Shown here one piece after another: positions 31,700 to 34,890 of a stretch of DNA of 64,000 nt. Below the pieces are notes generated by a model that saw nothing but the letters and a program-made list of their open reading frames with translations, made no database searches and had not been told where the DNA came from. This stretch comes from a virus: positions 51,126 through 115,125 of the IMG/VR virus record IMGVR_UViG_3300014325_000011; one strand, written 5' to 3'. The translations under genes and the position numbers were made by a program. Each line of letters begins with the position of its first letter. The stretch's first letter is position 1.

Positions 31700-31981
31700 T
31701 CAGTTCCGGGCCTGCTCGGCTATCTCACGCCAGCGTCGGGCGTTCTCGGCAAGGGCGGCTGTCAGTGCATCCCGCAGCCGGGCGGCGTCCTGTTCGGACA
31801 GCTCGACGTACACCTCTGGGTCGGCGGCGGTATCCACGGTGGCGATCCGCACCGCATAGCCGGACGGTTCCGCGGCTGGGTGCATCCCGGTGCGGGCCAC
31901 GTCGAGTTCGCGGCCGTCACAGTCGCGGATCGGCTCTGGCAGGTCGAGGGAACTCCAGATGCTCACAGCGGCCTCCGCCAA
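31700..31981 (-). CDS. Hypothetical protein
   Basis: 93-aa ORF between TerL and portal. Confidence 0.45.
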   Translation of the reverse strand: MAEAAVSIWSSLDLPEPIRDCDGRELDVARTGMHPAAEPSGYAVRIATVDTAADPEVYVELSEQDAARLRDALTAALAENARRWREIAEQARN

Positions 31982-34436
31982 CCCTCCTGTGAGGTCTGGC
32001 CGGGGAACAGGTCGTCGATGCCCAACGGGGCTGGTGTCTCGTCGGGCGGAAGCTGGGGCTGTGACCCGGCGGCGTCCTCTTTGGCGAAGACGTGGTTCAT
32101 GTAGAACTGCATCCCACCGATGTCGGCAAGATCAGTTATCGCCCAGACGCAGTTGTGGACCAGCACACCGTTCGCCACGAACTCGTGGACGTCGGCGACC
32201 TGTAGGTCATACACGTCCCGCAGCTCGGGCTCGGCGTAGAGCTGCACCACACGTCCGGCCGCAGGTCTCGGGCTTGACCCGGTACTTGTTCTGCCAGAAC
32301 TCTGTTCCGCAGAGAGGACACGGCACGCGGACCTTGTAGGTGTTGGCGTCTCGGTGATCTTTTTCGATGCACTGTTTCGAGCAGTGCTTGGCTCCCCGGG
32401 GGTTGCGGCTGAGGAACTTCGTGCCGCAAGTGACACAGGTGTACTCGACGTGCTCACGGTCTTCCCAAGTCCGGGCGCCGTGTTCCCGGTGCCACGCTCG
32501 CCCCTCGTCGCTTCGGTGCCACTCGGAAGCCAAATGCCGGACATCGGCGAGATGAGCCTGTTGTCTTGGCCCTCGGTTCCGCTCCAAGACCTCGTCGGCG
32601 TGTTCGGCGAAGTGCTCCGGCGGACTGAGCGCGACAAGGTTCGAGGGGTCGTTGTTGAACGGGTCGTCGTCCTTGTGGTGGACGTGGTAGCCGTCGGGAA
32701 TTGGACCGTGATGGCGCTTGTAGATCTCACGGTGGTACTGCTCAAGGCCGGAGCCACGAGGAGGCGAGTAGTAGACCCGGTTGGCGCGCTGCCGGCCTTT
32801 CGGGTTCCGGGTATAACGCACGCCGTCGAGGTAGACGGAGATAGGCGATTCCATACCACGATTGTATCTGCCCAAACCAGAGAATCGAGACGAGCCCATC
32901 CGCGATTCTCGGTCCAGACAAGGTGATCGGGAGTACCCGTAATCCGTCGCCCGTCAGCCGTAACTGCGGTCATCACCCGGGCTTCGCGGCGCGTACAGCG
33001 CGTCGCTTCGACCAGACGCCATCCCGCGCGGGTCCACACCAGTTCGCCCGGCTGGACATCTTCAATCGGGACGTCACCCCGACGCGCGAGAACCGTGGTA
33101 CCCGCGATCAGGCAGGCGTCGAGCCTGTTCGGCGACCAGTCCGCGTCCGGCGTCCACGAGATCATCTCGTCCTCAAGGTCAGGTAGCCCGCCGACATGGT
33201 GCGCCCGGCCCTGCTCGTAGATCGCCGAGATCGGTTCGGCGCGGATCTTCTTACCGCGGCTGGCCGTGACCTTCGTGTAAGCCACGTTGTGATCCACATG
33301 GCGGATCGTCGACTCGACCATGTCCGCCCCGAAGTTGACCTCGGCGACGATCCTGTCCGCCTTGTACCGGTGGTAGGCGTCGACCGCGGCCCGAGCCCAA
33401 CCATCCGGGCTCGCCTTCAACGTCAGGTCTTCCAACACCCAGAAGTGCTCCTGCGCGTCGACACCGGCTACGACGATGCCCGTGTGGTCCGACTCGTCGT
33501 TGGCCGTACCTGCCGGGTCGATCGCGACCACGATCCGGACCAGAGTGGGTAGGTCTGTGAGCGCACGACGGTGCTCGTCGATGTTGCCCCGGGTCCACAG
33601 GGCGCCCGGGTTGTCGTCCAGGTATTCGCCGTACAGCTCCTGGCGGCCAAGACGGGTGCCCTCGTAGCGCTTGCGCAGTTCCGACAGGGCGGCAGCGGAC
33701 AGGTTCGCCGCGTTGTCGAATGTCGAGCCGCGGGTGACGACTACCGAGCCGTCATCGCGGCCCATCCAGTCCTTGAGCAGGATCGATGGCTTCGGTGTGG
33801 TCGTGACGATGACCTGCGGGCGGCCGATGCGTAGCGCCGGGGCTAGGCCCTCAGTCCAGGACGCGCGGGCGTAACGCCACTTGGCAATTTCATCGAACCA
33901 ACCGCCGGACAGGTTCAGGCCACGGCCTACGTCGGCGTCATCCGCACCCAGCATGTGGATGATCTGGCCTGTGCTCAGCCTGATCTGCCAGAGCGACCGG
34001 TTATACACGTAGTCGACGTGGCGGTTGTTGAGCACGGTGCGAACACCGGCCGGACCTTCGACGCAGACCAGCCGAGCGTCGGAGAACGTTTCGGCGACGA
34101 TCGCCCATTCGGTGGGAGAGCCGTCGGGAGCGGTTGGGGTGTCGAGGACGCGCTGAACCAGCGTCTCGGCACCCGTTCGACTTTTCCCCAACCACGTCCC
34201 GCCAGGATCAGCCAGACGAGCCAGTCGCCGTCAGGTGCCCGCTGGGCGGTCCGTGCATGCTTCCACGTAAACGTGCCGTGGGGTTCGCCGTCACAGTCGT
34301 CGAGGCCGCACGCCCACGGCTTGTCTGCCGTAACGGTGACGGCTTCGAGTTGCTGGCGCAGTTCGAGCTCCCGCCGAAGGAGGGCGAGGCGTCGTTCAGC
34401 TAGGGTCGCCGGTTTCGGCAAGGTCGCGGTGGACAA
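31963..34436 (-). CDS. terL: Terminase large subunit, -1 frameshift at 34182-34188, intein-containing
   Basis: Frame 1 from TTG 34436 (GGAG RBS) ends ...WLILAGRGWGK. The -1 frame continues SRTGAE...GGWFDEIA (Walker B)...TTTPK...GRQELYGE...VAIDPA...DRIVAEVNFG...SPNRLDA. Confidence 0.9.
32152..33114 (-). mobile_element. Intein (321 aa) in the TerL nuclease domain
   Basis: Begins CLIAGTTV (block A); GTPDHLVW (block B TxxH); VYDLQV...HEFVANGVLVHN|C (blocks F/G, Cys+1). Exteins rejoin as SPNRLDA-CVWAITDL. Confidence 0.95.
32207..32854 (-). CDS. HNH homing endonuclease nested in an alternative frame inside the intein
   Basis: YHREIYKRHHGPIPDGYHVHHKDDDPFNNDPSNLVAL...EH..EH (HNH_3 type) plus C-terminal Zn-finger repeats CVTCG..F...CSKQC and CPLCG.EF...TCGRTC. 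Confidence 0.9.
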   Translation of the reverse strand: MESPISVYLDGVRYTRNPKGRQRANRVYYSPPRGSGLEQYHREIYKRHHGPIPDGYHVHHKDDDPFNNDPSNLVALSPPEHFAEHADEVLERNRGPRQQAHLADVRHLASEWHRSDEGRAWHREHGARTWEDREHVEYTCVTCGTKFLSRNPRGAKHCSKQCIEKDHRDANTYKVRVPCPLCGTEFWQNKYRVKPETCGRTCGAALRRARAAGRV

Positions 34437-34890
34437 GGCGGCGCTCCAACTCGGCGATCTCCGCTTCGATCTGGCCGACGGTTCGGACCTCAACCTTGGT
34501 CGGGGCGTCAAGGCCGAGGAGCTTCGCCCGACGGTCTTGGATCTTCAACAGCCGGTCGATGGCGGCGAGGATGGGTGCGTCGTCTTCCAACGGTTTGCCG
34601 TCGTGCCAGATGACGCCGTCTTTCTGGACGGTGTAGTGCTTGGCTTCGAGTACCTGCATGCCGGCCTGGTAAAGCCGGTCGAGGCGTTCGAGTTCGAGGG
34701 CGCGTAGTTCGTCGGCGGTTTCGCGGACGTCGGCGGCGATGATCCGCTGGACGGCGCGGTAGGCGACGCCGCGGTTCGGGTAGCGGAGTTCGGTGGCGAT
34801 CTGCTCGTAGGTCTTGCCTGCGATCCGCATGCGGGCGGCGTCGGCGTCCCGGGCGGCGGTGGCAGGGTTGTTGCGGGCGCGGGGCGGCAT
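34396..34890 (-). CDS. terS: Terminase small subunit
   Basis: HTH (MRIAGKTYEQIATELRY), ELERLDRL, AIDRLLKIQDRRAKLLGLDAP; overlaps the TerL start. Confidence 0.85.
   Translation of the reverse strand: MPPRARNNPATAARDADAARMRIAGKTYEQIATELRYPNRGVAYRAVQRIIAADVRETADELRALELERLDRLYQAGMQVLEAKHYTVQKDGVIWHDGKPLEDDAPILAAIDRLLKIQDRRAKLLGLDAPTKVEVRTVGQIEAEIAELERRLVHRDLAETGDPS

Follow-up and report, generated by a model that had tools for sequence, protein, structure and literature searches.

We analysed a 64,000-nucleotide stretch of viral DNA (hereafter the window), which is the final 64 kb of the IMG/VR record IMGVR_UViG_3300014325_000011. This record is 115,125 bp long, has direct terminal repeats and is rated 100% complete, and rhizosphere and soil metagenomes hold DNA that is near-identical to the window. 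The minus strand carries the terminase gene terL, whose open reading frame (ORF) contains an intein. Within the intein, and in the −1 (equivalent to +2) frame of the same DNA, lies a complete gene for an HNH endonuclease. This double coding is real, selected and common to many phages.

The terL intein and the HNH gene nested within it

The GC content over terL is 65%. In Pfam searches, the TerL ORF was matched by Terminase_6N (residues 2–202) and Terminase_6C (residues 223–336) as well as by Hint_2 and Intein_splicing. A preliminary description of this locus had reported an open intein of 321 codons with intact splicing blocks (C1, TPDH, VYDL...HN/C+1), and we found all of these elements in place: Cys1 follows ...SPNRLDA, block B reads GTPDH, block F reads VYDL, and the intein ends with ...LVHN in front of Cys+1 (Table 1). 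The intein profile PF14890 (Intein_splicing) scored 41.6 bits against a cut-off of 35.8, and all 60 inteins in an alignment share C1 and N321. In the structural model of the intein frame, residues 1–90 and 281–321 are predicted to form a Hint fold, with a pLDDT score (predicted local distance difference test) of 81–98, and the 190-residue linker between them has a pLDDT of about 50. No domain was found in this linker by Pfam search and it is predicted to be disordered, in agreement with the earlier remark that it holds no endonuclease in the intein frame. The TerL frame shows no internal stop across the intein, which makes this the contiguous, cis-splicing form and not a split intein.

The HNH gene was likewise recovered as described before, with 215 amino acids in the −1 frame, two C-terminal zinc-binding modules and a TGA stop inside block F of the intein. 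The ORF lies in a 248-codon open stretch of that frame. Its match to HNH_3 (PF13392) reached 50.8 bits with a cut-off of 24.8 (E = 1.2e-13). The invariant residues of the HNH core are H59, H60, N68, N72 and H81, and both ribbons follow the pattern CxxC...CxxxC; in total, the window HNH keeps all 27 residues that are invariant in the family. The model of the protein has a mean pLDDT of 93.1. Its first 90 residues match I-HmuI (1U3E) with a middling Z of 7.5 (VIA-align; root-mean-square deviation 3.1 over 76 residues), and the next match has Z 4.8. When the whole HNH model was compared with the PDB by Foldseek, no significant match was observed, and a PDB sequence profile search with the HNH gave weak matches only, with I-HmuI at E = 0.043. 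In the protein database, the HNH clusters nearest to the window copy are 53–57% identical. The intact ORF, the invariant residues, the confident fold and a conserved start geometry (see below) suggest that the window HNH is functional.

Table 1. Features of the terL locus, in window coordinates
Feature	Position	Strand	Basis
TerL ORF, 742 aa, from the Walker-A Lys onward, contains the intein	31963..34191	minus	ORF list; Pfam Terminase_6N, Terminase_6C, Intein_splicing
N-extein: ATPase and most of the RNase H-like nuclease domain, end ...SPNRLDA	33115..34191	minus	Pfam stretches 2–202 and 223–336; junction from a 90-locus alignment
Class-1 intein, 321 codons (Cys1 ... His-Asn)	32152..33114	minus	Junction alignment; alignment invariants C1, H64, N321
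N-terminal splicing (Hint) domain, intein residues 1–90, blocks A and B	32845..33114	minus	pLDDT 90–98, beta-rich; Hint_2 and Intein_splicing matches
Intein-frame linker, residues 91–280, Thr/Ser/Arg-rich, predicted disordered	32275..32844	minus	pLDDT 46–53, without secondary structure
C-terminal splicing domain, residues 281–321, blocks F (VYDL) and G (...VLVHN)	32152..32274	minus	pLDDT 81–98; conserved in every nested locus
C-extein, first residue Cys+1 (32149–32151), CVWAITDL...	31966..32151	minus	Junction alignment
HNH endonuclease gene, −1 (+2) frame of the intein, 215 aa and TGA	32207..32854	minus	HNH_3; 104 homologous protein clusters; model
HNH residues 8–90: N-terminal beta-hairpins and beta-beta-alpha-metal core (HVHH...NN...N...H)	32585..32833	minus	I-HmuI match; invariant residues
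Zinc ribbon 1, HNH residues 133–172	32339..32458	minus	Invariant C140, C143, C158, C162; small zinc-finger fold matches
Zinc ribbon 2, HNH residues 175–215	32210..32332	minus	Invariant C179, C182, C198, C202; YacG-like match, Z 4.8
HNH stop TGA inside the block-F codons TAT GAC	32207..32209	minus	GTA TGA read from intein GTG TAT GAC
−10-like box TACAAT, 6 nt before the HNH start codon ATG (32852–32854)	32861..32866	minus	In intein codons GAT ACA ATC

Recurrence of the nested layout and selection on the HNH frame

The probability that the intein frame stays open across the HNH ORF by chance was estimated by synonymous resampling of the HNH codons. At 65% GC it is about 0.08, and thus an open intein frame is by itself unremarkable in this GC-rich genome. 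In low-GC members of the family the corresponding values are 7.8e-4 (Acinetobacter phage Highwayman) and 3.7e-7 (Clostridium phage phiCDHM19), and free-standing HNH homologues carry 8–12 stops in the frame equivalent to that of the intein. Three further studies (X2, soil, 2025; X3, rhizosphere, 2017; X4, soil, 2025) yielded contigs with 0 differences and 0 gaps relative to the window over the start and stop of the HNH and the N-terminus of the intein. Since these independent assemblies are identical, compensating indel errors are excluded.

The same offset occurs inside the annotated terL of Tetrasphaera phage TJE1, Highwayman, Rhodobacteraceae phage MD07 and phiCDHM19. A wider sample comprised 101 further loci from IMG/VR and GTDB genomes with GC contents of 0.28–0.70. 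The HNH is nested at −1 in 84 of them, in host ORFs of 388–1259 codons; 2 more are cut by contig ends, and a spanning ORF is lacking in the other 15. The preliminary description had allowed that homologues or resequencing might reveal the HNH in frame with the intein, but this arrangement was found in none of the 101 loci, and neither was an HNH in the third frame. All nested hosts have blocks F and G and a C, S or T at position +1 around the HNH stop, which lies in or adjoins these blocks in every case, and a Cys1 block A 270–364 codons upstream. All ten representative hosts that were examined with Pfam are TerL proteins of the Terminase_3 or Terminase_6 type.

Three of these ten hosts carry a second, upstream intein (L027, 739–4290; L066, 97–3873; L079, 1084–4233), with a LAGLIDADG domain in L027 and L066 and only a second Hint domain in L079. 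The same TerL-intein-HNH layout also occurs in L106 (305–2377), a contig of a Nanobdellota archaeon metagenome-assembled genome that was binned with a DPANN archaeon; either an archaeal virus or faulty binning may account for it. A search for longer, fused homologues with the HNH in frame returned one 1446-residue protein, P0105 (JGI metagenome), labelled ‘intein/homing endonuclease’. Only its last ~60 residues match, in frame, to HNH residues 106–162, and we rejected it as an in-frame intein-HNH fusion; it probably derives from the element by frameshifting and truncation.

To see which frame is under selection, we counted substitutions by host codon position in 11 pairs of related inteins. 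Host position 2 is HNH position 3, so the wobble excess moves to the HNH frame within the overlap and back outside it. In the N-terminal splicing domain, 161, 127 and 333 substitutions fall on host positions 1, 2 and 3, respectively. Within the HNH overlap the counts are 218, 606 and 301, and in the C-terminal splicing domain they are 15, 4 and 55. The ratio of non-synonymous to synonymous substitution rates (dN/dS) in the overlap is 0.10–0.31 for the HNH frame in 10 of the 11 pairs, the proportion of synonymous differences (pS) being saturated in the eleventh, versus 0.8–1.9 for the intein frame. Among these relatives, the HNH frame is the frame under purifying selection in the overlap, as had been expected for a comparison of this kind. 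Because the HNH frame is selected and the HNH is predicted to fold while the linker is predicted to be disordered, the linker appears from the models to be a stop-free spacer and the HNH to be the protein that matters in this part of the DNA.

A separate observation concerns the N-terminus of TerL. This part of the protein (...WLVWLILAGRGWGK) sits in a different frame from the remaining TerL (LGKSRTGAE...; window 34137–34511, minus strand). A −1 shift on G GGA AAA (slip site GGGAAAA, 34182–34188) would restore the Walker A motif GRGWGKS, and in the relatives L011 and L084 the Walker A region is contiguous. Since the X2 and X3 contigs, which stem from two independent studies, agree with the window here and contain no indel, the frame break is no assembly error. 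It represents either programmed frameshifting or a broken gene, and it bears on the amount of TerL that is made.

Start signals and mobility

The conserved N-terminus of the HNH family aligns with the ATG at 32854 and not with the upstream ATG at 32899. Signals in front of the start codon were surveyed in 85 non-redundant nested loci and compared with control windows. A TANNNT box 5–8 nt before the start was observed in 32 loci (6 nt in 30 of them) versus 2% of the control windows. A Shine-Dalgarno core (GGAG, GAGG or AGGA) at −18 to −4 was present in 38 loci versus 5% of the control windows, and 2 loci carry both signals. The −10 type, which is also that of the window, dominates in high-GC, actinobacteria-like members. 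TANNNT at a distance of 6 nt from the start codon is the geometry of leaderless transcripts in Actinobacteria. The box is written in the intein codons for D-x-[LIM] as GAT Axx xTx. In all 19 loci with a GC content of at least 0.6, the Asp codon that provides the first T of the box is GAT, compared to a background GAT fraction of 0.24, and the rare codons AGA and ATA also recur within the box. This codon usage argues for selection acting on the DNA motif of the box itself.

The insertion point always lies within the metal-binding motif of the TerL nuclease domain and shifts by a few residues between TerL families. The window site is ...LDA/C VWAI... (a slash marks the insertion point), and most members have ...DH/C (x)DALRY. 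Highwayman is the only one of 42 Obolenskvirus records that carries the element. Compared to Highwayman, exactly 981 nt (327 codons) are absent from phage Acba_21, whose empty site reads ...HYIDA/LRYALEKV, and in Highwayman ...HYIDA and CRYAIEKV flank the intein. All 15 extein differences between the two terL genes fall between −163 and +12 nt relative to the insertion point, and the other ~1100 nt are identical. As judged from these sequences, this is the pattern that would be expected from homing with co-conversion of flanking markers. In the comparison of phiCDHM19 with phiCD119, the N-extein shows 71 substitutions in 1347 nt and the intein with its HNH shows 2 in 987 nt; CD1801 has the empty site ...KHDDA/PDALTGV. 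Both the precise absence and these apparent signatures of homing belong to relatives in the family and not to the window's own phage.

In the records of TJE1, Highwayman and phiCDHM19, only terL is annotated over the element, and an ORF of phiCD119 at this place is called ‘hypothetical protein’. The terL of phiCD119 (L114, 2005 record, 200–2595) differs from that of phiCDHM19 by ~8 single-base indels, which split its annotation into ‘ter2’ and ‘ORF3’ and are probably sequencing errors of the old record.

Free-standing HNH homologues adjoin intein-less terL genes and always lie beside terS, terL or portal genes. Several loci that had first been scored as free are split forms, among them L026, L060, Lactobacillus phage CL2 and Vibrio phage 1.245.O. 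Here, an ORF for the N-extein and N-intein is followed by the HNH gene and by an ORF for the C-intein and C-extein, which overlaps the 3′ end of the HNH gene in the same frame relation. CL2 (L008, 506–2760) and 1.245.O (L005, 1–3374) are isolated, viable phages with a split-intein (‘fractured’) terL. In an HNH tree built by a quick method, nested forms are interspersed with free and split ones, from which we claim no order of events.

A probable composite selfish element and its known counterparts

We consider it very likely that the locus is a composite selfish element in which two genes occupy the same DNA, a class-1 mini-intein and an I-HmuI-like HNH in the −1 frame. The preliminary description had already proposed a mini-intein with a free-standing type of HNH and both frames kept open, and the predicted folding of the splicing domains, the disordered linker and the same nesting in 84 of 101 loci bear this out. 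The mini-intein, with Hint halves of ~90 (N) and ~40 (C) residues and a disordered linker of ~190 residues, is inserted at the catalytic Asp motif in the nuclease domain of TerL. It would be translated within TerL and splice itself out together with the linker, thereby restoring ...NRLDA-CVWAITDL... The HNH, with its helical spacer and two C-terminal zinc ribbons, would be expressed on its own and not as part of TerL. The window's phage probably uses a leaderless transcript that arises at the internal −10 box (TACAAT, 6 nt, ATG), and other members may use a Shine-Dalgarno site. The HNH would then cut or nick the intein-less terL of co-infecting relatives at the conserved DNA of the nuclease motif. 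Repair would copy the intein and the HNH into the cut allele, and the intein would render the insertion harmless.

Four other explanations were weighed. The HNH ORF could be an unexpressed remnant that is open by chance in GC-rich DNA, in which case only the mini-intein would matter. Homing endonucleases do decay after fixation, and the dN/dS values come from relatives and not from the window's own copy. We regard this explanation as improbable, however, as the ORF is full length, retains every family-invariant residue, folds at pLDDT 93 and keeps the conserved start geometry including the rare GAT codon, and as the HNH frame of the relatives is constrained.

Another explanation, less probable still, is that the HNH is a domesticated packaging nuclease associated with the terminase, kept at terL for joint work. 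Nucleases of the HK97 gp74 type are small HNH proteins of the classical family that are needed with the terminase for cos cleavage. The constant position of free-standing members beside terS, terL or portal genes would suit such a role, which was also raised for a Brucella phage by Tevdoradze et al. 2015 (PMC4422536). The domain itself is of the HNH_3/I-HmuI-like type, and no HK97-type HNH family was among the Pfam matches at E ≤ 0.01, where HNH_3 was the only one. Phages near-identical to Highwayman package their DNA without the element, and co-conversion tracts together with the mismatch between element and extein identity are signatures of a mobile parasite.

It is very improbable that programmed −1 frameshifting out of the intein frame yields a fusion of N-extein, N-intein and HNH instead of a free protein. 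The HNH frame is exactly −1 to TerL and open for 33 codons upstream of the ATG, and a GGGAAAA site exists elsewhere in this TerL. In the window, though, no in-phase XXXYYYZ heptamer precedes the HNH, and such heptamers occur in 5 of 85 loci compared to 15 of 313 control windows, which is no enrichment. What is strongly enriched instead is a Shine-Dalgarno core or a −10 box ahead of the start codon.

The least probable explanation, that the HNH is truly in frame and two compensating assembly indels mimic a second frame, could draw on the metagenome-assembled nature of the record and on the fact that an open alternative frame is not rare at this GC content, but it is refuted by the contigs that are identical across both ends of the overlap and by the recurrence of the −1 offset in independent loci and in isolated, sequenced phages.

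Several points weigh against the composite element with two expressed genes. Intein splicing in this phage, translation of its HNH and the cleavage specificity of the enzyme, including the putative cutting of the empty allele, are deduced from sequence and from the family. Selection on the window's own HNH copy is likewise derived from the family, as no close relative was found: the intein region, used as a DNA query against the phage collection, gave no match, and hence no close sequenced relative there, and no relative of this TerL that lacks the intein turned up either. Neither start signal is present in 17 of the 85 surveyed loci, compared to 93% of the control windows, and part of the conservation of the box could come from the intein motif D-x-[LIM]. 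A scan for sigma-70 promoters with two hexamers over 32100–33200 found no promoter and no −35 partner; such a scan neither supports nor excludes a promoter that consists of a −10 box only, and thus the promoter is a putative one. Finally, a complete TerL needs the −1 shift at Walker A, so that TerL may not be made normally in this phage.

The preliminary description had called this a candidate for a little-described system and had advised caution about its novelty. That caution was justified, since out-of-frame nucleases in TerL inteins have been published for Brucella and Gordonia phages and a hidden HNH for a methylase insertion. Judged by its sequence, the window element is of the same kind as these published nested inteins and differs in nuclease family and insertion site. 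What stands of the first claim is that our literature search found no description of a family in which the −1 frame and the nuclease-motif site come together with an I-HmuI-like HNH_3 core and two zinc ribbons at the C-terminus. The family is a widespread one of an already published layout, and the published cases use other nucleases at other sites.

In the Brucella phages Tb and Pr (Perisivirus), the TerL intein carries an out-of-frame HNH gene (JN939331, ORF7/ORF8), as discussed by Tevdoradze et al. 2015 (PMC4422536). As in the window, the intein frame is open across a complete, separate HNH gene on the same strand (~228 residues, with zinc ribbons), and the C-terminal splicing block contains the HNH stop. 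In contrast to the window, the site of Tb is in the ATPase domain (GNRAD/C...HN/CVIIDD), the frame offset is +1 and not +2, and the domain order is reversed, with N-terminal zinc ribbons and a C-terminal HNH. Only the 30-residue HNH motif aligns between the two nucleases, and Tb was not found by tblastn with the window HNH.

Gosselin, Arsenault and Gogarten (bioRxiv 10.1101/2025.01.02.630785) reported TerL inteins of actinophages whose nuclease, in ‘frame 3’, is endonuclease VII-like, and also antisense LAGLIDADG and Vsr-like nucleases. Their Gordonia phage case resembles the window in that the nuclease lies in frame 3 (+2 = −1) of an unstructured in-frame linker of a TerL intein, and a free-standing endonuclease that invaded an intein is the proposed origin. 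Direct inspection of Gordonia phage Affeca showed a nuclease of the Endonuclease_7 type (CxxC...DHDH...) at the TRWHEDD motif of the ATPase, unlike that of the window. The type comes from one Gordonia phage cluster and is called rare and possibly transitional by its authors, whereas the family described here is widespread, stable and never in frame.

Dassa et al. 2009 (PMC2677866) described fractured genes, in which a free-standing endonuclease gene lies between the halves of a split intein and its 3′ end overlaps the C-intein ORF. The relatives L026, L060 and CL2 are exactly such forms. The host frame of the window, in contrast, is uninterrupted, and the nucleases of Dassa et al. are GIY-YIG and Vsr-like and not HNH. 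The ShiLan insertion in a phage DNA methylase hides an out-of-frame HNH ORF in a segment that is stop-free in the host frame (Arsenault et al. 2025, PMC11855218). That insert has no splicing domains and stays in the host protein, whereas the window intein is predicted to remove it. I-HmuI, the intron-encoded HNH of Bacillus phage SPO1, belongs to the same Pfam family HNH_3 and gave the best structural match to the N-terminal 90 residues of the window HNH. It differs in residing in a group I intron and in its C-terminal DNA-binding modules of the helix-turn-helix type, in place of which the HNH of the window, in its intein, has a long helical spacer and two zinc ribbons.

We also raise, tentatively and with more doubt than conviction, the idea that overprinting is an evolutionarily stable strategy and not a transitional accident, in which the HNH is shielded from post-fixation decay. 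The HNH is written across the frame of an essential gene, and therefore a frameshifting indel that kills the HNH would also destroy TerL. If the idea holds, this stability could explain why so many loci from many phyla have kept the nesting while none is in frame, the embedded promoter or ribosome-binding site would let the HNH be timed apart from the late gene terL, and overprinting would be the commonest way in which inteins at the TerL nuclease site carry a nuclease.

The textbook intein is a single-frame fusion that joins a splicing domain to an endonuclease domain. The family represents a long-lived alternative, in which a mini-intein and an endonuclease gene of the free-standing type share ~650 nt in two frames and the start signals are written in intein codons. 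Genome annotation pipelines overlook the nested gene or give terL a wrong label. With dozens of diverged members (GC 28–70%), the family forms a natural data set on how two proteins and a promoter fit into one stretch of DNA. Contiguous and split inteins are connected through this one family, which also supports the view that inteins gain their nucleases by invasion of free-standing genes.

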